Source: Escherichia coli
GTDB lineage: Bacteria > Pseudomonadota > Gammaproteobacteria > Enterobacterales > Enterobacteriaceae
Assembly: GCF_024700885.2 (NCBI RefSeq)
Contig: NZ_CP117016.1
Strand: one strand, 5' to 3'
Length of the DNA: 64,000 bases
Shown: one piece after another, positions 3,562 through 18,309 of the stretch
How the letters are laid out: each line of letters opens with the position of its first letter
How positions within the stretch are numbered: position 1 is the stretch's first letter
The notes under the pieces: model-generated
Told to the model about the DNA's origin: nothing
The model's input: the letters and a program-made list of their open reading frames with translations, nothing else
Database searches by the model: none
Translations under genes and position numbers: made by a program

Positions 3562-4221
3562 TCAGAGATGGTATGCCGGTACTTTGCGGGTTGTTCCTGT
3601 CAGGTTATCGTGCACCTCCACGGTCGTGGTCACCACCGGCATTCCGGCCTTTCTCAGCCTCAGAACATCAGCCGCAATACGCTGACTGCCAAACCAGAAC
3701 AGGCCGTCCAGTGCAGTCACCAGTAAACCCGCCTCCAGTGCATACTTCAGCCGTTCACGGGGCGCTTTCACTTCCCGGGCAACCTGCTGATATGGCAATG
3801 ATGTGTTTTCATTCCCAACCACGCGACGAATACGATGAGACAGATGATACCGGAATGTATCCGGCACACCAGAAAGGCTGGCCTTCAGGCTGTACACGCA
3901 GCCAAACCGTTTATCGTTAAACACCACATTTTTCTGGCTGATTCCCCATTCTTCACGCAGCGCAGCAATCAGTTGTGGTGTACGGGTAAGCAACAAGCGA
4001 AAAGGCAGTTCAAAACTGGTGACGTAATCCACATTCAGCAGTGCAATACGCAGCCGTTCTTCTGGCCCGGCCTCTGTCTGCCGGCACTCCTCCAGAACAT
4101 CCTGCCACTGCTGGCGAAGACGGGGCGATTCGTTCCGTTCTGTAAAACAGTATTTATCCGCCAGATAGTCAATTTGTGTACGCATACTGAAGAGCATTCC
4201 GTATAAAGATTCAGCTGACAA
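3562..4221 (-). CDS. hypothetical island protein (219 aa)
   Basis: Uninterrupted ORF in the same minus-strand string; no motif recognised. Confidence 0.45.
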   Translation of the reverse strand: MSAESLYGMLFSMRTQIDYLADKYCFTERNESPRLRQQWQDVLEECRQTEAGPEERLRIALLNVDYVTSFELPFRLLLTRTPQLIAALREEWGISQKNVVFNDKRFGCVYSLKASLSGVPDTFRYHLSHRIRRVVGNENTSLPYQQVAREVKAPRERLKYALEAGLLVTALDGLFWFGSQRIAADVLRLRKAGMPVVTTTVEVHDNLTGTTRKVPAYHL

Positions 4222-7648: not shown

Positions 7649-7855
7649 ATGATCACCCCAGTTTCACTGATGGATGACCAGATGGTCGACATGGCATTTA
7701 TCACTCAACTGACCGGCCTGACCGATAAGTGGTTTTACAAACTCATCAAGGATGGTGACTTTCCTGCGCCCATCAAAATGGGCCGCAGCTCCCGATGGCT
7801 GAAAAGCGAAGTGGAAGCCTGGCTGCAGGCGCGTATTGCACAGTCCCGTCCGTAA
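7649..7855 (+). CDS. alpA: AlpA-family prophage transcriptional regulator
   Basis: LTGLTDKWFYKLIKDGDFPAPIKMGRSSRWLKSEVEAWL is the AlpA HTH signature; GGAGGA Shine-Dalgarno before ATG 7649. Confidence 0.8.
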   Translation: MITPVSLMDDQMVDMAFITQLTGLTDKWFYKLIKDGDFPAPIKMGRSSRWLKSEVEAWLQARIAQSRP

Positions 7856-7935: not shown

Positions 7936-8544
7936 ATGAAAATGAAACCACAGTATCAGACCCGTTACGAGCTGCTCCACGAAAGCTACCAGAAATGGCT
8001 GACCGGCTTCACCCGGCACGCCGTATCCTGGGGCGTGTGTCATCCGAATATCTACTACTTCCATAATCTGACGCCCGGGTGGGTGTCATTCAATGGTGAA
8101 AAACCGGAGATTGCCATCGTACCCCAGAGTCTGCACCGGCTGATTTATGGTCCGGACAAACGGACCACGCCGCCCCTGGATGATGATCTGATAGTGAATT
8201 TATGCACCAGTGAACATCTGCTGGTTCATCATCCGATGCTGGAAGGCATTCTCCTGTCTGAATGTGAACGTCTGAGGCAGCGTTCGCTGGCAAATAAACT
8301 GATCAGCCTCTTCCGTCAGTTTGGTGGCACGGAGTTGCGCCTCAAACTGGTCTGGCTTTGCTGGCTTGATTTAATGACCGGAAACTGCCTTGACGACTGG
8401 ACGGAGAATCTGAAACGGAAATCAGAAAAAGAGCTGGAGGAATGGATCATCAACCGTCAGAAGCAGAGCGCAGCACTGACGGATCTGATGGATCAGTACG
8501 TGCTCCTGGCATACCGCACAACGGTTGACGATAAGCGCACCTGA
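7936..8544 (+). CDS. hypothetical protein (202 aa) downstream of alpA
   Basis: ORF with GTGAGGAA Shine-Dalgarno before ATG 7936 (start MKMKPQYQ). Confidence 0.5.
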   Translation: MKMKPQYQTRYELLHESYQKWLTGFTRHAVSWGVCHPNIYYFHNLTPGWVSFNGEKPEIAIVPQSLHRLIYGPDKRTTPPLDDDLIVNLCTSEHLLVHHPMLEGILLSECERLRQRSLANKLISLFRQFGGTELRLKLVWLCWLDLMTGNCLDDWTENLKRKSEKELEEWIINRQKQSAALTDLMDQYVLLAYRTTVDDKRT

Positions 8545-8766
8545 TGCCAGTTGTTTCAGGGAAGCTGGTATCCGGGCAGGGTGCCAGGGCTGACTGAACG
8601 GCCTGTCTGTCTGCCGTTTCGCTCTCCGTGCGTTCTGTCACACGCTGCACCTGAACGCCGGACTGCGGGCACGCAGACAGGAAAGTCGCAGGCTGGAACT
8701 TCTGACCGGCGGGTATCAGTTATATGCCTGTTGATTCATCACCACCACGCAGCTCCTGAGCTTTAG

Positions 8767-8806
8767 TTCATCACCGATATTCATACATCTGAATATCGGT
8801 GATGAA
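8767..8806. repeat. perfect 17-bp inverted repeat (TTCATCACCGATATTCA / 6-nt spacer / TGAATATCGGTGATGAA)
   Basis: Read directly; lies between convergent genes ending at 8544 and 8866. Confidence 0.6.
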
Positions 8807-8865
8807 ATCCCCATAATAATCAATCATCTAAGTCTGAAGCATAATGGAGAAAAACTGCTCACCGG

Positions 8866-10350
8866 TTACTTCGCTCTCAGCTTATTGTAGTGATAACCCG
8901 AGGTAAAAATACCAGAGACATCAGACAACTTTAAACTGGCTATCTGGGGAAGCAGAACATACATGGTTTTTCCTTCCGGCACGACAGAAAGCCTGAACTG
9001 AGATTCAAGAATGTTCAGCAATGCGTTCAGTTTTTTCCTGTTTCTGAACCGACCCGGGCCACACTGGAGAATATAATTTTTCCTGACACGGGGTGGGCAT
9101 TCTCCGCGGCACTCCTCAATGAGCCAGTCGAACAGCTCCTCGGCGTCCTTCTGCTGCAGTTCAGATTCATCAGGTAACGCAAATAATTTTTTATATTCAT
9201 CTGTGTACCACGAACTTATTACGACAGCAGACGTCATGATATCGGCAGAGATTTTCCCTTCACCATAGTTGAAATACTGAAATAACGCTGCAATTCTTGC
9301 AATGTTTTCTGTTTTTTTTGAAACATGTCCCCGAAACGGGCTTAAGGGTCCGGAAGGGGATAAATCCTGCTCCAGAACATTATAGTGCTCAATAAATATT
9401 TTTTGCGCTTCAGGCGAAAAATGCAGACAATACCGTTCATCCTCACTGGATTTTTCAATACTGCCTCTGGCCAGTTCCATTAATCGTTCATGAAATGCCG
9501 TTAATGATCCTCCCGGAATCACAGCTCCGTTAATAAAGCGTTTCCCCTGCGTGGTTGCAGGTTTACTGATAAGACAACGGGCAAGAAAACCACTGTCCCT
9601 GGCAACAGAACCTTTTCGCTCCATATATCGGTCAAAAAGACCGGGTTGCACCATGAGGGATAACGTCATTCTGGCATTTTCAATCATCTGTTCGGGTTCA
9701 TTCTTTCTGTCCACAGACAATACAGAGCCATCCCACATTTTGTTAATAAAAGGCAACTCAGACAGGGTATATCCATCAAATATAATACCGGCTTCATCTG
9801 ACATAATACCCACTGAACGCCATTTACCATAAAGCTGATTCTTAATTGCCGCAGTCGTGGCATCATTAAAAATGAATTTATACCTCACAGGTTCTTCCGC
9901 ACTGTTTTTCTGAAGTACTTCCAGTTGTCTGAGGGTTTCTGACTCATCCGCGCCTTTGCGGAGTTCTTTATTCAGTTTTGACAACAATGCTTTTTTCTGA
10001 GCCTTTAAAAGCTCTTCCTTGTTTTTCCAGACAGCCAGTTCACTTTTGTATCTGGAATATAACTGCATCTCCTGCTGGTACAGGGGCTTCATTAATAATT
10101 TGTCCACTGCGGTTTTTCGTTCTCCGGACTCGGCAAGCGTCAGGAAAAAAAGAGAGACCGGCCCCCGCAGTGTATTCAGTCTGCAGACATCAATCAGATT
10201 CTGGCAGACAAGTGAAACAGCGCCCAGGGCAGACGCTGCCACAAGCCCAAGGGGAGCCTGCGTAATTTGCTGAGCTTCAATAACGGCATCACGAATGAGT
10301 GGAGGCAGCGAACTCAGGGGAAACTCATCACAAGGCTGACCGAATGACAT
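8866..10350 (-). CDS. DUF3987-like (YfjI-like, primase C-terminal-like) island protein
   Basis: Approx. 490 aa with an SDEAG segment, next to alpA as in CP4-type islands; start at MSFGQP with GTGAGG upstream; ORF track extends to 10419. Confidence 0.45.
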   Translation of the reverse strand: MSFGQPCDEFPLSSLPPLIRDAVIEAQQITQAPLGLVAASALGAVSLVCQNLIDVCRLNTLRGPVSLFFLTLAESGERKTAVDKLLMKPLYQQEMQLYSRYKSELAVWKNKEELLKAQKKALLSKLNKELRKGADESETLRQLEVLQKNSAEEPVRYKFIFNDATTAAIKNQLYGKWRSVGIMSDEAGIIFDGYTLSELPFINKMWDGSVLSVDRKNEPEQMIENARMTLSLMVQPGLFDRYMERKGSVARDSGFLARCLISKPATTQGKRFINGAVIPGGSLTAFHERLMELARGSIEKSSEDERYCLHFSPEAQKIFIEHYNVLEQDLSPSGPLSPFRGHVSKKTENIARIAALFQYFNYGEGKISADIMTSAVVISSWYTDEYKKLFALPDESELQQKDAEELFDWLIEECRGECPPRVRKNYILQCGPGRFRNRKKLNALLNILESQFRLSVVPEGKTMYVLLPQIASLKLSDVSGIFTSGYHYNKLRAK

Positions 10351-11580
10351 AGTAACCTCACTACACACAGATATAAAAGCACTGCAATTCTGGCTATTAA
10401 TAGCAAAAATAGCAGTCAAATCAATATGAGGTAAAAATTTTTGTTGATTTAATGGTTAAATAATAACCACAGTGTGTTTTGCTGCTGAAGAAAGACAAAA
10501 TGAATCTGTGTGTCCCCTCCTTCCCTTCAGAGCACATCCACTATTCAAATTTTACACAACCACGTACGAACAAAAAGCATCATCCCGGGTATTGCAGATA
10601 CCGGTTTCCTGCCGGGATGAATCATAAACAGAACACCGGGAATAACGCCTTCAGGAATCCCCCCCCTCCTGAAGAAGAATAAAATAAAGAAGACTACATT
10701 TCCTGCACTGTATGCTGAGTACAATATTCTATGGACAGGATGACATATTTATAAATAACAAAAACCATTTAATACTGATACATCAATAAAATACTTCCTC
10801 CCTGCTGACGCAGATAAAATGCACCATTTTTTCTTCAAATACTTCTGTATAATCGCCAGCCAATGATGAGAATGGATTAAAATAACACTTCTTCGACAAA
10901 CACAAAAACAGCCTTCATTTTACATCATCATCCAGTTTCAGTTAACCCCGGACGAGCAACAGCGTTTCAGTACAGGAATTAAAAGCCAGCTTTTGCTCAG
11001 TAAAAACACACTCAACTAATAATATCTCAGCAGATATTATCCTGACCAGGACACCTCACATTACTGAATTCTCTTCCGACAGTATCACTGCACAAATAAA
11101 AAAGAACGGGATAAATATTCAGACCGGAAGAATGGTGTCACAAAAGCATTTAATCATTACGCATGACCAGGAAGGGAAACACTTAACCACATGGTATCAA
11201 CAGATATCATTACGTGTGCACTCTTATAAAAAACACACAGAAGAAGTAAGATAATTATAAATGTAAATTTAATATCTCCCACTGACATCTCCCCCACAAT
11301 ACACTGAAAAATACTCACAGCAGTAAACACAGACACACCTGATAATCATGCAGCCGATAAATATTTTCCCCTTTACGGAGAAATCAGCCTGCTGTTTAAC
11401 AATAACGGCGTATTTTCATGGAAGGAGATCACCCAGTAACGGATAAGTCCTGATCTCCTTCATGTTAATACGCAACAATCCCATCGATTAAAAACAATTT
11501 CAGACAGATATTATCTCCGTGAATCCCCCGCCACCTTTCCGGTGCGCGGGATTTTGTCTTTTTTCACCGGGAATACATGT

Positions 11581-12453
11581 ATGAATCCGTCTGATGCCAT
11601 TGAGGCAATTGAAAAACCGCTCTCCTCCCTGCCTTACTCGCTTTCCCGTCACATCCTGGAACATCTGCGCAAACTCACCCGTCACGAACCCGTGATTGGC
11701 ATTATGGGTAAAAGCGGGGCCGGTAAATCCTCACTCTGTAATGCACTGTTTCAGGGGGAGGTCACCCCGGTCAGTGATGTTCACGCCGGCACCCGGGAAG
11801 TACGGCGCTTCCGTCTGAGTGGCCACGGTCACAGCATGGTTATCACTGACCTGCCCGGGGTGGGCGAGAGCCGGGACAGGGATGCAGAGTATGAGGCCCT
11901 GTACCGTGACATTCTGCCTGAACTTGACCTGGTACTGTGGCTGATTAAAGCCGATGACCGTGCCCTGTCTGTGGATGAGTATTTCTGGCGACACATCCTG
12001 CACCGGGGACATCAGCGGGTACTGTTTGTGGTGACGCAGGCCGACAAAACGGAGCCCTGCCATGAATGGGATATGGCCGGTATTCAGCCTTCTCCTGCAC
12101 AGGCACAGAATATTCGCGAAAAAACGGAGGCGGTATTCCGTCTGTTCCGGCCCGTACATCCGGTTGTGGCCGTATCGGCCCGCACCGGCTGGGAACTGGA
12201 TACGCTGGTCAGTGCGCTCATGACAGCGCTTCCCGACCATGCCGCCAGTCCCCTGATGACCCGACTGCAGGACGAGCTGCGCACGGAATCTGTCCGGTCT
12301 CAGGCCCGTGAACAGTTTACCGGTGCGGTGGACCGGATATTTGACACGGCGGAGAGCGTCTGTATTGCCTCTGTTGCACGCACGGTTCTGCGTGCCGTCC
12401 GTGACTCGGTGGTCTCTGTTGCCCGCGCTGTATGGAACTGGATTTTCTTCTGA
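11581..12453 (+). CDS. yeeP: YeeP/YkfA/YfjP-family GTPase
   Basis: P-loop GIMGKSGAGKSSLCNAL, then DLPGVG and TQADK motifs; positioned upstream of flu as in CP4-44. Confidence 0.7.
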   Translation: MNPSDAIEAIEKPLSSLPYSLSRHILEHLRKLTRHEPVIGIMGKSGAGKSSLCNALFQGEVTPVSDVHAGTREVRRFRLSGHGHSMVITDLPGVGESRDRDAEYEALYRDILPELDLVLWLIKADDRALSVDEYFWRHILHRGHQRVLFVVTQADKTEPCHEWDMAGIQPSPAQAQNIREKTEAVFRLFRPVHPVVAVSARTGWELDTLVSALMTALPDHAASPLMTRLQDELRTESVRSQAREQFTGAVDRIFDTAESVCIASVARTVLRAVRDSVVSVARAVWNWIFF

Positions 12454-12572
12454 ACACTCTGCCAGGGGAAATGCCTGATTATATTGCATTAACAAACTGA
12501 AAACATGACACAAACCCCTCATACTCCTCCTGTTTCTCTTGCGTGACCGCCTTGTCGTTAATAGAATAAAAC

Positions 12573-12608
12573 GATCGATAAAACAGGTATCGATCGCTAC
12601 TATCGATC
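12573..12608 (+). promoter_or_regulatory. agn43 phase-variation switch: three GATC Dam sites within the OxyR-binding region
   Basis: GATC at 12573, 12592 and 12605 in AACGATCGATAAAACAGGTATCGATCGCTACTATCGATCGTTTATAG, about 220 bp upstream of the flu ATG. Confidence 0.7.
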
Positions 12609-12825
12609 GTTTATAGTGGTTAATGGCCTGCGAAAAGGCAGCTGAATCTCTTCATCATGCAGAACGGAATTGCACACAACGGACTGATACTTCTCTGGCG
12701 GATGAGAGAGGGGAAGCATTTATGTCCGGGAAAAACCACTTTATCTGACCATGCTGTTTTGTACCTGCCGGTATCCACATTTGTGGGTACCGGCTTTTTT
12801 ATTCACCCTCTGTAAGGAAAAGCTG

Positions 12826-15672
12826 ATGAAACGACATCTGAACACCAGCTACAGGCTGGTATGGAATCACATTACGGGTACCCTGGTGGTGGCCTCCGAA
12901 CTGGCCCGCTCACGGGGAAAACGCGCCGGTGTGGCGATTGCGCTGTCTCTTGCTGCTGTCACATCAGTCCCGGCACTGGCTGCTGACACGGTTGTACAGG
13001 CGGGAGAAACCGTGAGCGGCGGAACACTGACAAATCATGACAACCAGATTGTTCTCGGTACGGCCAACGGAATGACCATCAGTACCGGTCTGGAGTATGG
13101 GCCGGATAACGAGGCCAATACCGGCGGGCAATGGGTACAGGATGGCGGCACAGCCAGTAATACCGCCATCAGCAGCGGCGGTCTCCAGTTTGTAGGTGCC
13201 GGGGGAAAGGCTACAGACACAATAATCAATGAAGGAGGCGGACAAAGTCTGAAGGGACTGGCACTGAACACCACGCTGAATGGTGGCGAGCAGTGGATGC
13301 ATGAGGGTGCGATAGCCACAGGAACCGTCATTAATGATAAGGGCTGGCAGGTCGTCAAATCCGGCGCAATGGCAACCGACACGGTTGTGAATACCGGCGC
13401 GGAAGGGGGACCGGATGCAGAAAATGGTGATACCGGGCAGTTTGTTCGCGGAAATGCCGTACGTACCACCATCAATAAAAATGGTCGTCAGATTGTGGCT
13501 GCTGAAGGAACAGCAAATACCACTATGGTTTATGCCGGCGGAGACCAGACTGTACATGGCTACGCGCTGGATACCACACTGAACGGCGGTAACCAGTATG
13601 TGCACAACGGCGGTACAGCGTCTGACACTGTTGTTAACAGTGACGGCTGGCAGGTGGTGAAGGATGGTGCAGTGGCTGAGAATACCACCGTTAATCACAA
13701 GGGCAAACTGCAGGTGAATGCCGGTGGTGTCGCTGTTGATGTTACTCAGAATCAGGGAGGGGCACTGGTTACCAGTACTGCTGCAACGGTTCTTGGCAGC
13801 AACCGTCTGGGCAATTTCGCGGTGGAAAACGGTAAGGCTGACGGCGTGGTTCTGGAATCCGGTGGTCGCCTGGATGTACTGGAGAGCCATTCAGCACAGA
13901 ATACCCTGGTGGATGACGGCGGTACCCTGGCAGTGTCTGCCGGTGGTAAGGCAACAGGTGTCACCATGACATCCGGTGGTGCCCTGATAGCAGACAGTGG
14001 TGCCACTGTTGAGGGTACCAATGCCAGCGGCAAGTTCAGTATTGATGGCATATCCGGTCAGGCCAGCGGCCTGCTGCTGGAAAATGGCGGCAGCTTTACG
14101 GTCAATGCCGGGGGACAAGCCAGCAACACCACGATCGGACATCGTGGAACACTGACGCTGGCTGCCGGGGGAAGTCTGAGTGGCAGAACACAACTCAGTA
14201 AAGGCGCCAGTATGGTACTGAATGGTGATGTGGTCAGTACCGGCGATATTGTTAACGCAGGGGAGATTCGCTTTGATAATCAGACGACACAGGATGCCGT
14301 GCTGAGCCGTGCTGTTGCAAAAGGCGACGCCCCGGTAACGTTCCATAAACTGACCACCAATAACCTCACCGGCCAGGGCGGCACCATCAATATGCGTGTT
14401 CGCCTTGATGGCAGCAATGCCTCTGACCAGCTGGTGATTAATGGTGGTCAGGCAACCGGCAAAACCTGGCTTGCGTTTACAAATGTCGGAAACAGTAACC
14501 TCGGGGTGGCAACCACCGGACAGGGTATCCGGGTTGTGGATGCACAGAATGGTGCCACCACAGAAGAAGGTGCATTTGCCCTGAGCCGCCCGCTTCAGGC
14601 CGGCGCCTTTAACTACACCCTGAACCGTGACAGCGATGAAGACTGGTACCTGCGCAGTGAAAATGCTTATCGTGCTGAAGTCCCCCTGTATGCCTCCATG
14701 CTGACACAGGCAATGGACTATGACCGGATTCTGGCAGGCTCCCGCAGCCATCAGACCGGTGTAAACGGTGAAAATAACAGCGTCCGTCTCAGCATTCAGG
14801 GCGGTCATCTCGGTCACGATAACAACGGCGGTATTGCCCGTGGAGCCACGCCGGAAAGCAGCGGCAGCTATGGCTTCGTCCGTCTGGAGGGTGACCTGCT
14901 CAGAACAGAGGTCGCCGGTATGTCTGTGACCGCGGGGGTATATGGTGCTGCTGGCCATTCTTCCGTTGATGTTAAGGATGATGACGGTTCCCGCGCCGGC
15001 ACGGTCCGGGATGATGCCGGCAGCCTGGGCGGATACCTGAATCTGGTACACACGTCCTCCGGCCTGTGGGCTGACATTGTGGCACAGGGAACCCGCCACA
15101 GCATGAAAGCGTCATCGGACAATAACAACTTCCGCGCCCGGGGCCGGGGCTGGCTGGGCTCACTGGAAACCGGTCTGCCCTTCAGTATCACTGACAACCT
15201 GATGCTGGAGCCACAACTGCAGTACACCTGGCAGGGGCTCTCCCTGGATGACGGCCAGGATAACGCCGGTTATGTGAAGTTCGGGCATGGCAGTACACAA
15301 CATGTGCGTGCCGGCTTCCGTCTGGGCAGCCACAACGATATGACCTTTGGCGAAGGCACCTCATCCCGTGACACCCTGCGCGACAGTACAAAACACCGTG
15401 TGAGTGAACTGCCGGTGAACTGGTGGGTACAGCCTTCTGTTATCCGCACTTTCAGCTCCCGGGGTGACATGAGCATGGGTACAGCCGCCGCCAGCAGTAA
15501 CATGACGTTCTCACCGTCCCGGAATGGCACGTCACTGGACCTGCAGGCCGGACTGGAAGCCCGTGTCCGGGAAAATATCACCCTGGGCGTTCAGGCCGGT
15601 TATGCCCACAGCGTCAGCGGCAGCAGCGCTGAAGGCTATAACGGTCAGGCCACGCTGAGTGTGACCTTCTGA
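12826..15672 (+). CDS. flu: antigen 43 self-associating autotransporter adhesin
   Basis: MKRHLNTSYRLVWNHITGTLVVASELARSRGKRAGVAIALSLAAVTSVPALAADTVV signal region and near-identical C-terminal translocator; AAGGAAAAG before ATG. Confidence 0.9.
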   Translation: MKRHLNTSYRLVWNHITGTLVVASELARSRGKRAGVAIALSLAAVTSVPALAADTVVQAGETVSGGTLTNHDNQIVLGTANGMTISTGLEYGPDNEANTGGQWVQDGGTASNTAISSGGLQFVGAGGKATDTIINEGGGQSLKGLALNTTLNGGEQWMHEGAIATGTVINDKGWQVVKSGAMATDTVVNTGAEGGPDAENGDTGQFVRGNAVRTTINKNGRQIVAAEGTANTTMVYAGGDQTVHGYALDTTLNGGNQYVHNGGTASDTVVNSDGWQVVKDGAVAENTTVNHKGKLQVNAGGVAVDVTQNQGGALVTSTAATVLGSNRLGNFAVENGKADGVVLESGGRLDVLESHSAQNTLVDDGGTLAVSAGGKATGVTMTSGGALIADSGATVEGTNASGKFSIDGISGQASGLLLENGGSFTVNAGGQASNTTIGHRGTLTLAAGGSLSGRTQLSKGASMVLNGDVVSTGDIVNAGEIRFDNQTTQDAVLSRAVAKGDAPVTFHKLTTNNLTGQGGTINMRVRLDGSNASDQLVINGGQATGKTWLAFTNVGNSNLGVATTGQGIRVVDAQNGATTEEGAFALSRPLQAGAFNYTLNRDSDEDWYLRSENAYRAEVPLYASMLTQAMDYDRILAGSRSHQTGVNGENNSVRLSIQGGHLGHDNNGGIARGATPESSGSYGFVRLEGDLLRTEVAGMSVTAGVYGAAGHSSVDVKDDDGSRAGTVRDDAGSLGGYLNLVHTSSGLWADIVAQGTRHSMKASSDNNNFRARGRGWLGSLETGLPFSITDNLMLEPQLQYTWQGLSLDDGQDNAGYVKFGHGSTQHVRAGFRLGSHNDMTFGEGTSSRDTLRDSTKHRVSELPVNWWVQPSVIRTFSSRGDMSMGTAAASSNMTFSPSRNGTSLDLQAGLEARVRENITLGVQAGYAHSVSGSSAEGYNGQATLSVTF

Positions 15673-15792
15673 CAGAACCATCGCCTCTCTGTGGTCCCGG
15701 TCATCATGATCGGGACCCGGACCGGCGCAACGGATATTCAACGCCACATTCGCTGGCATTAACAATAACATGATATTCATCACGGAGTGACT

Positions 15793-18309
15793 ATGTTACA
15801 GATAGTCGGCGCGCTGATCCTGCTGATCGCAGGATTTGCCATTCTTCGCCTTTTGTTCAGAGCATTAATCAGCACGGCTTCTGCGCTGGCAGGGCTCATA
15901 TTGCTGTGTCTGTTCGGCCCGGCCTTACTGGCTGGCTATATCACCGAACGCATAACCCGGTTGTTCCATATTCGCTGGCTGGCAGGCGTATTTCTGACGA
16001 TTGCCGGAATGATCATCAGCTTCATGTGGGGACTTGATGGTAAACATATCGCGCTGGAGGCTCACACCTTTGACTCTGTGAAATTTATTCTGACCACCGC
16101 TCTCGCCGGTGGTCTGCTGGCTGTTCCCCTGCAGATCAAAAACATTCAGCAGAACGGGATCACACCAGAAGATATCAGCAAGGAAATTAACGGGTATTAC
16201 TGCTGTTTTTATACTGCCTTTTTCCTTATGGCGTGTTCTGCATGCGCACCATTGATCGCGTTACAGTACGATATTTCACCGTCACTGATGTGGTGGGGCG
16301 GGTTGTTGTACTGGCTGGCTGCATTAGTGACGCTGCTATGGGCGGCCAGCCAAATCCAGGCGCTGAAAAAACTGACCTGTGCCATCAGCCAGACACTGGA
16401 AGAACAACCGGTGCTCAACAGTAAATCGTGGCTGACCAGTTTGCAAAACGATTACAGCCTTCCTGACTCACTGACGGAGCGCATCTGGCTGACGCTCATT
16501 TCTCAACGGATTTCCCGGGGAGAGCTGAGGGAATTTGAACTGGCAGACGGAAACTGGTTACTGAACAATGCCTGGTATGAAAGAAACATGGCAGGGTTTA
16601 ACGAACAGTTGAAAGAGAACCTGTCATTCACACCTGATGAACTGAAAACGCTCTTCCGGAACCGCCTGAATTTATCACCGGAAGCGAATGACGATTTTCT
16701 CGATCGTTGCCTGGACGGCGGTGACTGGTATCCCTTTTCAGAAGGTCGCCGTTTTGTATCATTCCATCACGTGGATGAGCTTCGTATCTGTGCCTCCTGC
16801 GGGCTGACAGAAGTACATCATGCCCCGGAAAATCATAAGCCGGATCCGGAATGGTACTGCTCCTCTCTTTGTCGCGAAACAGAAACACTGTGTCAGGAAA
16901 TTTATGAACGCCCTTACAACAGCTTTATTTCCGATGCAACGGCGAATGGTCTGATTCTCATGAAACTGCCGGAAACCTGGAGTACAAATGAGAAAATGTT
17001 TGCTTCCGGAGGGCAGGGACATGGGTTTGCCGCTGAACGGGGAAACCATATTGTCGACAGAGTCCGTCTGAAAAACGCACGGATCCTCGGTGATAATAAT
17101 GCCAGAAATGGAGCAGACAGACTGGTCAGCGGAACAGAAATCCAGACGAAATATTGTTCAACTGCAGCCCGTAGCGTCGGTGCGGCATTCGACGGACAAA
17201 ACGGACAGTATCGTTACATGGGAAATAATGGCCCCATGCAACTGGAAGTCCCCCGTGATCAGTATGCCGGCGCTGTTGAAACCATGAGGAATAAGATCCG
17301 CGAAGGTAAAGTACCCGGTGTAACCGATCCCGCAGAAGCATCCCGGCTGATTCGTCGGGGACATCTGACTTATACTCAGGCCCGTAATATCACCCGGTTC
17401 GGGACCATCGAATCGGTCACTTATGATATTGCCGAGGGTTCGGTTGTCAGTCTGGCGGCCGGAGGGATCAGTTTTGCCCTGACGGCATCGGTCTTCTGGC
17501 TCAGCACCGGCGATCGCGATGCTGCCCTGCAGACAGCTGCTGTCCAGGCAGGAAAAACCTTCACCCGCACACTGGCTGTCTACGTCACAACCCAGCAACT
17601 CCACCGGCTCAGTGTTGTTCAGGGTATGCTGAAGCACATTGATTTTTCGACTGCCAGCCCGGCTGTTCGACTGGCTCTTCAGAAGGGGACCGGTGCAGGA
17701 AATATCAGTGCCCTGAACAAAGTGATGAAGGGTACGCTGGTGACATCTCTGGCACTGGTAGCTGTCACAACCGGCCCTGACATGATCAAAATGTTGCGGG
17801 GACGGATCTCCGGTACGCAGTTCATCAGGAATCTTGCCGTGGCATCTTCCGGTGTGGCAGGTGGTGCTGTCGGGTCAGTGGCGGGCGGAATACTGTTCAG
17901 TCCACTGGGACCATTTGGTGCACTGACAGGGCGTGTGGTTGGCGGTGTTCTGGGGGGAATGATTGCCTCCGCTGTATCAGGAAAAATTGCCGGAGCGCTG
18001 GTTGAAGAAGATCGCGTCAAAATTCTGGCAATGATTCAGGAGCAGGTGACATGGCTTGCCGGCAGTTTCCTGCTGACCGGACATGAGATTGAAAATCTGA
18101 ACGAGAATCTGGCCCGTGTTATCGATCAGAATGCTCTGGAGATCATTTTCGCCGCCGGTATACAACAACGGGCCGCGACCAATATGTTAATCAAACCACT
18201 GGTGGTCAGTATCATCAGGCAACGCCCCGTCATGGAATATGATGCATCCCATCTCGGCAATATGGTTAACCGACTGGAAGAAGCATTACCCCCGGAGTTA
18301 CCGGCATAA
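15793..18309 (+). CDS. yeeR: YeeR-like inner membrane protein (838 aa) with C-terminal glycine-zipper segment
   Basis: Position immediately after flu; N-terminal TM helices; GGAVGSVAGGILFSPLGPFGALTGRVVGGVLGGMIASAVSG near C-terminus. Confidence 0.55.
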   Translation: MLQIVGALILLIAGFAILRLLFRALISTASALAGLILLCLFGPALLAGYITERITRLFHIRWLAGVFLTIAGMIISFMWGLDGKHIALEAHTFDSVKFILTTALAGGLLAVPLQIKNIQQNGITPEDISKEINGYYCCFYTAFFLMACSACAPLIALQYDISPSLMWWGGLLYWLAALVTLLWAASQIQALKKLTCAISQTLEEQPVLNSKSWLTSLQNDYSLPDSLTERIWLTLISQRISRGELREFELADGNWLLNNAWYERNMAGFNEQLKENLSFTPDELKTLFRNRLNLSPEANDDFLDRCLDGGDWYPFSEGRRFVSFHHVDELRICASCGLTEVHHAPENHKPDPEWYCSSLCRETETLCQEIYERPYNSFISDATANGLILMKLPETWSTNEKMFASGGQGHGFAAERGNHIVDRVRLKNARILGDNNARNGADRLVSGTEIQTKYCSTAARSVGAAFDGQNGQYRYMGNNGPMQLEVPRDQYAGAVETMRNKIREGKVPGVTDPAEASRLIRRGHLTYTQARNITRFGTIESVTYDIAEGSVVSLAAGGISFALTASVFWLSTGDRDAALQTAAVQAGKTFTRTLAVYVTTQQLHRLSVVQGMLKHIDFSTASPAVRLALQKGTGAGNISALNKVMKGTLVTSLALVAVTTGPDMIKMLRGRISGTQFIRNLAVASSGVAGGAVGSVAGGILFSPLGPFGALTGRVVGGVLGGMIASAVSGKIAGALVEEDRVKILAMIQEQVTWLAGSFLLTGHEIENLNENLARVIDQNALEIIFAAGIQQRAATNMLIKPLVVSIIRQRPVMEYDASHLGNMVNRLEEALPPELPA

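Follow-up and report, generated by a model that had tools for sequence, protein, structure and literature searches.

A putative promoter–terminator leader for a GTPase operon at the edge of a gene-free spacer in a CP4-type genomic island of Escherichia coli

Gene-free gaps longer than 1 kb are unusual in Escherichia coli. What does such a gap hold when it separates two divergent genes of a genomic island, and does any part of it govern the genes at its sides? The question is raised by positions 10351–11580 of a 64,000-nt stretch of E. coli DNA (contig NZ_CP117016.1; the whole stretch is called the window here). The gap belongs to a CP4-type genomic island carried by the window, and an identical copy of the locus (L001) is found in strain BEC1-S17-ESBL-09. 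In the RefSeq annotation of that copy an AlpA-like helix-turn-helix gene and a gene for a 200-aa hypothetical protein are followed by a YfjI-family gene on the opposite strand, the unannotated gap, a gene for a 'GTPase family protein' and Ag43; downstream of Ag43 lie DUF932, antirestriction and JAB/RadC genes and a YeeU-CbtA block, and the island ends at the kps capsule genes. The gap is bounded by the start codon of the YfjI-family gene (8866–10350, minus strand) and by the ATG at 11581 of the GTPase gene (11581–12453, plus strand), which is of the YeeP/YfjP type. A sequence-only reading had described most of it as an AT-rich, non-coding stretch with no obvious gene remnant, and this description holds. 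The gap is gene-free over its 1,230 nt, its longest internal open reading frame (ORF) has 67 codons (10479–10682, TTG start), and it has a G+C content of 0.38, compared with 0.49 over the window as a whole. No RefSeq feature lies under the full-length matches to the gap among the E. coli matches listed, and in the sampled genomes every complete copy has the YfjI and GTPase genes on either side. The gap consists of two parts with different histories:

10351–11580, no strand assigned: the whole intergenic gap, 1,230 nt, from the ORF list and the RefSeq annotation of the identical locus L001.
10351–11482, no strand assigned: spacer body, 1,132 nt, E. coli-specific, AT-rich, G-poor on the plus strand, fast-evolving and indel-rich.
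11483–11580, plus strand: leader module, conserved, moving with the GTPase gene and not with the spacer.

Our analysis makes it probable, as a single joint reading, that the right end is a cis-regulatory leader with a sigma-70 promoter for the GTPase operon, that this leader acts as a promoter-proximal attenuator, and that the body is a weakly constrained E. coli-specific spacer encoding no protein or recognisable RNA. The two ends of this argument can be separated by distribution. Matches that cover at least 80% of the gap occur in 1,867 of 5,426 complete E. coli genomes, and the final ~100 nt are matched in 4,170 of them, far above the carriers of the body and often several times per genome. 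In the L005 island, where a gene for a 383-aa hypothetical protein precedes the GTPase gene, homology to the window begins exactly at 11483, at the stop codon of that gene. Within the leader two elements are recognised:

11488–11514, plus strand: predicted sigma-70 promoter, from alignment with the upstream regions of K-12 yfjP and ykfA, with −35 hexamer TTAAAA (11488–11493), a 15-nt spacer containing the conserved TTCAGACAGA and −10 hexamer TATTAT (11509–11514).
11527–11564, plus strand: intrinsic-terminator-like element, from a terminator scan, with hairpin CCCGCCACC-TTTCC-GGTGCGCGGG at 11527–11550 and T-tract TTTTGTCTTTTTT at 11552–11564, ending 16 nt before the ATG.

The hexamers agree with TTGACA and TATAAT at four and five of six positions (TTAAAA and TATTAT, respectively) at a separation of 15 nt, and a consensus promoter scan that admits spacers of 16–18 nt only misses them. 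The upstream regions of the window gene and of K-12 yfjP and ykfA, whose GTPases are ~50% identical to that of the window, share the block ATTnAAAAnAnnTTCAGAyAkATATyAT, followed in all three by a GC-rich hairpin of unrelated sequence, a T-run, a Shine–Dalgarno (SD) sequence and the ATG. RNA polymerase binds in vitro at the two paralogous K-12 spacers: genomic SELEX (systematic evolution of ligands by exponential enrichment) with RpoD holoenzyme gave peaks in the ykfA and yfjPQ spacers, and the authors propose TTGAAA-15-TATCAT for both (Shimada et al. 2014, PMC3946193). These K-12 'constitutive' promoters resemble that of the window in their orthologous or paralogous sequence, the positions of the hexamers, the 15-nt spacing, the TTCAGAYAKA spacer and the GTPase family downstream; the window differs in having TTAAAA/TATTAT instead of TTGAAA/TATCAT, and a hairpin of unrelated sequence. 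For these sites the SELEX list gives hexamers only and no downstream terminator (PMC3946193). That list and a chromatin immunoprecipitation (ChIP) study of the RNA polymerase omega subunit held the only useful mention in the literature searched for yfjI, yeeP, yfjP and ykfA. By position, transcription in the window is predicted to start near 11521–11522. The sequence-only reading had also suggested a promoter region for the GTPase gene and flu somewhere in 10420–11540. This is supported in part, for the final ~100 nt, whose predicted promoter hexamers lie within that interval and would serve the GTPase gene; the remaining ~1.1 kb shows no promoter enrichment, and flu has an upstream region of its own.

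The hairpin of the window leader has 9 bp and a folding free energy (dG) of −15.2 kcal/mol, and begins 13 nt past the −10 hexamer, ~6 nt past the predicted start. Of 25 leaders, 23 have a hairpin of −10 kcal/mol or lower with a T-tail, a combination found in 13 of 500 shuffled leaders (2.6%), and the T-tail ends 13–21 nt before the ATG (52 nt in Acinetobacter). At least five unrelated stem sequences occupy this same leader position, with pairing kept across lineages. When the leaders were simply aligned by MAFFT, RNAalifold gave a poor consensus with hairpins out of register, so an alignment of 23 matches by a covariance model built on the enterobacterial type was used instead. In it 85.9% of the paired cells are complementary against 67.2% with partners shuffled (a level reached in 0 of 500 shuffles), seven of the nine stem pairs are altered on both sides, and the covariation score is 0.399 against 0.114 for shuffled partners (0 of 500) and 0.02–0.09 when partners are slid by 1–3 columns. 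Across the gap only this hairpin and a 66-nt repeat in the body, described below, are strongly structured. A further pairing was seen around the hairpin: positions 11515–11523 (CTCCGTGAA) can pair with the SD-proximal 11565–11575 (TTCACCGGG; CTGAGG/AGGAG in other lineages), which would enclose the terminator in a longer helix masking the SD sequence. This pairing beats shuffles in 11 of 23 leaders (mean z-score −1.3) and is puzzling, in that the predicted transcription start falls inside its 5′ arm.

In the mechanism that we propose, most transcripts from the leader promoter would end at about +45, as RNAs of ~45 nt, at the hairpin and U-tract, and the GTPase gene and the genes behind it would be expressed only by read-through. 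Such a promoter-proximal attenuator could be a fixed throttle or could be relieved by some antitermination factor. The reading as an attenuator is favoured because the terminator lies within a few bases of the predicted start and too little sequence follows for a further promoter ahead of the ATG. The anatomy, conservation and covariation of the leader are observed, as is polymerase binding in vitro at the two K-12 spacers; start site, termination and regulation are inferred. What is new here is the unannotated promoter–terminator leader; the kind of control element is already known. As in classical leader attenuators, a GC-rich hairpin with a U-tract stands between promoter and start codon and is kept by compensatory change. 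The window leader differs in its length of only ~60 nt, and a search of it showed neither a leader peptide nor an alternative antiterminator hairpin nor a riboswitch-like aptamer.

The leader extends well beyond E. coli. A scan of one genome per species for a degenerate form of the block, in which the motif is partly fixed by the search pattern, gave 28 loci in ~16 genera, mostly Enterobacterales and including Klebsiella, Citrobacter, Enterobacter, Kluyvera, Serratia, Yersinia, Hafnia, Photorhabdus and Mixta. In nearly all 28 a YeeP/YfjP-type GTPase gene follows the block at a distance of 90–105 nt. Two loci from Acinetobacter (L013, L018) have no GTPase gene, and there the promoter motif and terminator hairpin directly precede a DUF932 gene, the gene that follows the GTPase gene in E. 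coli; the leader is thus a property of the operon and not of the GTPase. A motif-free search, by tblastn for GTPase homologues on plasmids, recovered the block, hairpin and T-run beside proteins of 58.6% and 51% identity, and the leader block was absent before plasmid GTPases of 44% identity or less. The block of GTPase, DUF932, WYL, DUF905 and antirestriction genes was seen on plasmids L048 (IncFIB), L049 (IncHI1B/IncP) and L051 (untyped, non-mobilizable), two of them typed as conjugative, and the promoter–terminator leader is kept on L048 and L049.

A second gene is a frequent neighbour of the leader. Genes for proteins of ~290–390 aa with no Pfam or PHROG match lie directly upstream of it in L005 (2864–4015), L012, L014, L019, L023, L028, L029, L034 and L036, with a stop codon that abuts or overlaps the −35 region; the window arrangement has no such gene. 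The C-terminus of these proteins is conserved, basic and of DNA-binding appearance, and it is possible that they regulate the leader promoter. In other genera the usual order places the gene for the 200-aa hypothetical protein and alpA on one strand and the ~290–390-aa gene, leader and GTPase gene on the other. Compared with L014, L019, L023 and L034, the window has the pair of alpA and the 200-aa gene, the latter at 7942–8544, inverted relative to the GTPase operon, YfjI present and the ~300-aa gene missing, an arrangement that suggests that an inversion or replacement may have created the long spacer.

The body has a different character. Its alleles fall into three classes, namely the window type, a class of ~85–88% identity (L003, L004) and one of ~77–82% (L002, L055). 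Strains Nissle 1917 and ATCC 25922 carry the allele of ~85% identity. Pairwise identity over the gap is 78–88%, with 48–181 gapped columns; in the same island copies yfjI and the GTPase gene are 87–93% identical at their third codon positions. Three alleles agree in only 62% of columns, and by sliding identity local peaks stand at 10551–10630, 11191–11280, 11307–11346 and 11484–11580. Because its identity is no higher than that of the third codon positions at its flanks and indels are frequent, we regard the body as weakly constrained. The window allele carries a ~30-nt deletion at 11038, and an IS66 insertion splits the gap in one genome. In L004 an insertion of ~70 nt (3839–3905) with the palindrome GATCACGGTTTGGCCAAACCGTGATC was seen at window position ~11158, another small hairpin insert in the spacer. 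Among plasmids, viral contigs and the 28 related loci of other genera, no homologue of the body came to light beyond E. coli: plasmid-collection matches were only mislabelled chromosomes and the 66-nt element, an 18-nt conserved pattern gave one near-identical E. coli copy and eight chance matches among viral contigs, and the 28 loci had no blastn match.

Nor does the body appear to encode a protein. Stop codons number 15–32 per frame in all six frames of the gap; base frequencies on the plus strand are A 0.36, C 0.23, G 0.15 and T 0.26, at which stop codons make up ~6–7% of codons by our own arithmetic, so that the absence of long ORFs is what is expected at random. No Pfam domain was found in the six frames (one chance match at E 0.07), and each of 18 ORFs of at least 20 aa is broken in one or more of the three other alleles. 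The G+C content of the kps part is lower still than that of the gap. The plus strand of the gap is strongly G-poor and A-rich, with a GC skew of about −0.21 and an AT skew of about +0.19, at around the 98th–99th percentile of the 1.1-kb stretches of the window. This strand asymmetry (A over T, C over G, G at 15%) was observed over 10351–11480 in all three alleles, and its direction is that expected if the minus strand had, over a long time, served as the non-template strand of leftward transcription to yfjI, or had once been coding.

Within the body the following elements were considered:

10381–10416, no strand assigned: palindromic block containing GCTATTAATAGC (inverted repeat I2), 30–65 nt upstream of the yfjI start.
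10551–10630, no strand assigned: most conserved internal block of the body, 85–93% three-way identity by sliding identity.
10649–10674, plus strand: stem-loop CTTCAGGA-N10-TCCTGAAG, 8 bp with a 10-nt loop.
11019–11040, no strand assigned: palindrome ATAATATCT-CAGC-AGATATTAT (repeats I19, D13, D7), which holds a second copy of the promoter core CAGATATTAT.
11183–11210, plus strand: weak promoter-like site TTAACC-16-TATCAT, 9 of 12 positions in the consensus scan.
11408–11473, no strand assigned: 66-nt near-perfect palindromic element, dG −30 kcal/mol, z-score −6.2.

At the left edge the sequence TAATAGCAAAAATAGCAG of the 10381–10416 block is unchanged in four alleles, and the surrounding 10371–10490 folds better than shuffles on both strands; the block is a candidate yfjI promoter or operator, which the left edge of the body would thus carry. 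A hairpin of the 10551–10630 block (TCATCCCGG/CCGGGATGA) is lost in allele L003. A candidate minus-strand terminator at 10570–10620 was rejected, having a z-score of −0.1 and being broken in L003. The exact palindrome at 11019–11040 occurs in the window allele only and borders the ~30-nt deletion relative to the other alleles; the near-copy of the promoter core at 11028, likewise specific to the window allele, is the only extra copy found in the islands when such copies were sought as the sign of a regulon.

The 66-nt element is cleanly missing from allele L002 and present in most alleles. It has copies elsewhere on E. coli chromosomes and plasmids, at a median of two places per genome, one of them directly downstream of cdtC on an IncF plasmid. 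Copies were also noted at L007 2501–2567 and L053 2301–2364, on IncF/pVir-type plasmids and on a Yokenella plasmid. It behaves like a low-copy dispersed repeat inserted in most alleles. It shares with repetitive extragenic palindromic (REP) sequences and bacterial interspersed mosaic elements (BIME), and with repeats of the enterobacterial repetitive intergenic consensus (ERIC) type, a near-perfect hairpin, presence or absence between alleles and dispersed intergenic copies, but differs in its low copy number and lack of an Rfam match, and no resemblance to them was seen by a comparison short of a formal test. In the proposed history the body would have gained this palindromic repeat and several indels. 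As AT-rich foreign DNA, it is also a plausible target for H-NS-type silencing: it has in common with H-NS-silenced island DNA a G+C content of 38% within a genome of ~50%, its island location and two GATAAATATT motifs (11110, 11356). We take these motifs to resemble the high-affinity H-NS site TCGATAAATT. In the SELEX list as it concerns ykfA and yfjP, their sites are not flagged as overlapping H-NS sites (PMC3946193).

Several points weigh against the combined reading of a leader attenuator beside a weakly constrained spacer. The SELEX peaks are of limited resolution and the hexamers are a prediction of the authors (PMC3946193, for the ykfA and yfjPQ sites), and a separation of 15 nt between the hexamers falls short of the sigma-70 optimum. 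Conservation of the motif among most non-E. coli loci arises partly by construction, these having been found by a pattern search. The covariation alignment was itself fitted to the structure, and three of its matches are weak, so that its numbers lean towards that structure; the slid controls argue that the covariation signal is genuine. In K-12 no 3′ end was found at the yfjP or ykfA leader among the ends listed in the Term-seq supplement; these genes are poorly expressed, a case in which such an absence says little. On the side of the body, mosaic recombination among island copies makes the contrast with third codon positions less sharp, the blocks at 10551–10630 and 11191–11280 are clearly more conserved than their surroundings, and the strand asymmetry is unexplained; a view of the body as mostly filler may therefore miss a function in it.

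The hairpin might instead act only as the terminator of an upstream gene, or as a 5′ stabilising hairpin on a GTPase transcript begun elsewhere, which we consider unlikely. In many loci it lies ~70 nt after a co-oriented gene, whose transcript it would end, and no 3′ end is listed at the K-12 leaders. In 11 of 23 leaders, moreover, the segment after the −10 hexamer can pair with the SD region, which fits transcripts reading through from upstream better than those from this promoter. Yet the promoter-like motif is always found upstream of the hairpin, the 13–21 nt between T-tail and ATG leave no room for another promoter, and the layout is kept with no co-oriented gene before it in the window, at K-12 ykfA and on plasmid L049. 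For a stabilising hairpin a conserved T-tract would be needless.

A bolder form of the attenuator reading, which we hold to be rather unlikely, is that promoter, hyper-conserved spacer and terminator make up a dedicated factor-dependent antitermination switch, gating an operon of 'GTPase - DUF932 - WYL/antirestriction - RadC - toxin/antitoxin' genes in CP4-type islands and IncHI/IncF plasmid modules of Enterobacterales and Acinetobacter. It would be relieved by an AlpA-family protein or by the ~300-aa upstream protein, and the spacer of the window would be what remains where the upstream regulator gene was lost or displaced. The leader resembles in layout the Pseudomonas aeruginosa AlpA promoters PalpB and PPA0807, where PPA0807 is followed 26 bp downstream by a terminator and the element bound by the factor (ABE) is placed between −35 and −10 (PMC7969949). 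As in that system and in lambdoid Q at PR′, the terminator-like element of the window lies a few tens of bases past the promoter and ahead of the first gene. In the window leader the stretch separating the hexamers shows unusual conservation, with TTCAGAYAKA shared by paralogues that were identified through gene context, and a gene of the island at 7649–7855 codes for a member of the AlpA family (PF05930). AlpA-family homologues are encoded in 9–10 of the related loci fetched. Against P. aeruginosa AlpA, however, the spacer is unlike the ABE motif GGGACGN5GGTA, and the resemblance is one of layout only. In the PDB the island protein matches 'AlpA family' 8c3t and the excisionase-like TorI, with no P. 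aeruginosa AlpA chain at E ≤ 1, and no AlpA gene was found within 2.5 kb of the plasmid leader copies. We do not file the leader as AlpA-type because its spacer is unlike ABE, the protein looks excisionase-like and plasmid copies have no alpA nearby.

Could the body be a decayed copy of the ~290–390-aa gene that precedes this leader in other genera and also in certain E. coli islands? The idea is tempting. The L005 gene measures 1,152 nt and the body 1,132 nt, and the YfjI-type arrangement lacks such a gene. At 10 or more loci the end of the 290–390-aa ORF is no further than 40 nt from the promoter motif, or the ORF runs 11 nt into it. The strand asymmetry, too, hints that one of the two strands formerly had a special role. 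All similarity tests nevertheless give background values. Tblastn of 14 upstream proteins from other genera against four alleles reached a best E of 0.08 against 0.06 for a reversed-sequence control, and the 383-aa protein of L005 gave E 3.8; Pfam gave no signal, stop codons are spread over every frame as described above, and the G-poor plus strand is unlike the composition of the candidate genes. The earlier statement that no obvious gene remnant is present thus stands as far as it can be tested, with a null result for Pfam in six frames and no similarity to the gene family that holds the same position in other islands, and we judge a decayed-gene origin improbable.

The sequence-only reading had further proposed that the stretch could carry a small RNA, and had singled out a stem-loop. 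The stem-loop is present, ~3 nt from where it had been placed, with arms CTTCAGGA and TCCTGAAG at 10649–10656 and 10667–10674, but its stability is at chance level (dG −10.8 kcal/mol, z-score −1.6, 12 of 200 shuffles as stable) and it is not conserved: in the other alleles only TTCAG/CTGAA remains of its arms, with no compensatory change. A small regulatory RNA gene in the body could be read on the plus strand from the site at 11183–11210 to the leader terminator, or on the minus strand with this stem-loop. The TTAACC-16-TATCAT site and the strong plus-strand terminator at 11527–11564 speak for such a gene, as do the conserved blocks at 11191–11346, and several 80-nt stretches of the gap fold better than shuffles. 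These points are met by others: Rfam 15 covariance models run over 8000–17000 on both strands at E ≤ 1 returned nothing in the gap, their only match being IS102 at 12571–12807 outside it; promoter-like sites in the gap number 5 against 3.9 expected in the consensus scan; the −35 of the 11183–11210 site is not kept in allele L002, the site being likely a chance match; the minus-strand terminator is the rejected one at 10570–10620; and the region tolerates indels of 30–70 nt. With no Rfam match and the stem-loop unconserved, we think a small RNA decidedly improbable. The one Rfam match is a separate observation: on the plus strand, between the GTPase gene and flu, 12571–12807 matches IS102/IsrC at 72.5 bits (E 6e-11), has a 3′ terminator hairpin and overlaps the annotated start region of Ag43; it forms part of the region upstream of flu.

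The neighbouring proteins invite one last alternative. The island proteins match PF05930 (AlpA), DUF3987 (YfjI) and MMR_HSR1 (GTPase) in Pfam, and the match of YfjI is strong (E 1e-95), its PHROGs family being labelled 'DNA helicase'. Origins of satellites and plasmids often adjoin an initiator or helicase gene, and a long, AT-rich spacer with palindromes lies beside this one, but that it is a cis-acting origin of replication or transfer served by YfjI is highly improbable, since its repeats are within the range of dinucleotide shuffles (best 9-mer three times, p ~0.055), tandem repeats or iterons are absent, it has one DnaA-like box and no IHF consensus, and its sequence is poorly conserved with frequent indels.

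The body is of little importance, a lineage-specific and poorly constrained gap as in many horizontally acquired islands. The leader provides a concrete candidate control point for a block of genes that is extremely common in E. coli and its relatives and is poorly understood, comprising YeeP/YfjP/YkfA GTPases, DUF932, antirestriction and RadC-like proteins and CbtA/CbeA-type toxin–antitoxins. Annotations of this GTPase family could include the promoter–terminator pair as an upstream regulatory feature. Should the terminator prove to be a regulated gate, that would account for the usual silence of these 'cryptic prophage' genes despite RNA polymerase binding in vitro at their K-12 counterparts, and it would point to a signal or factor that switches the block on.

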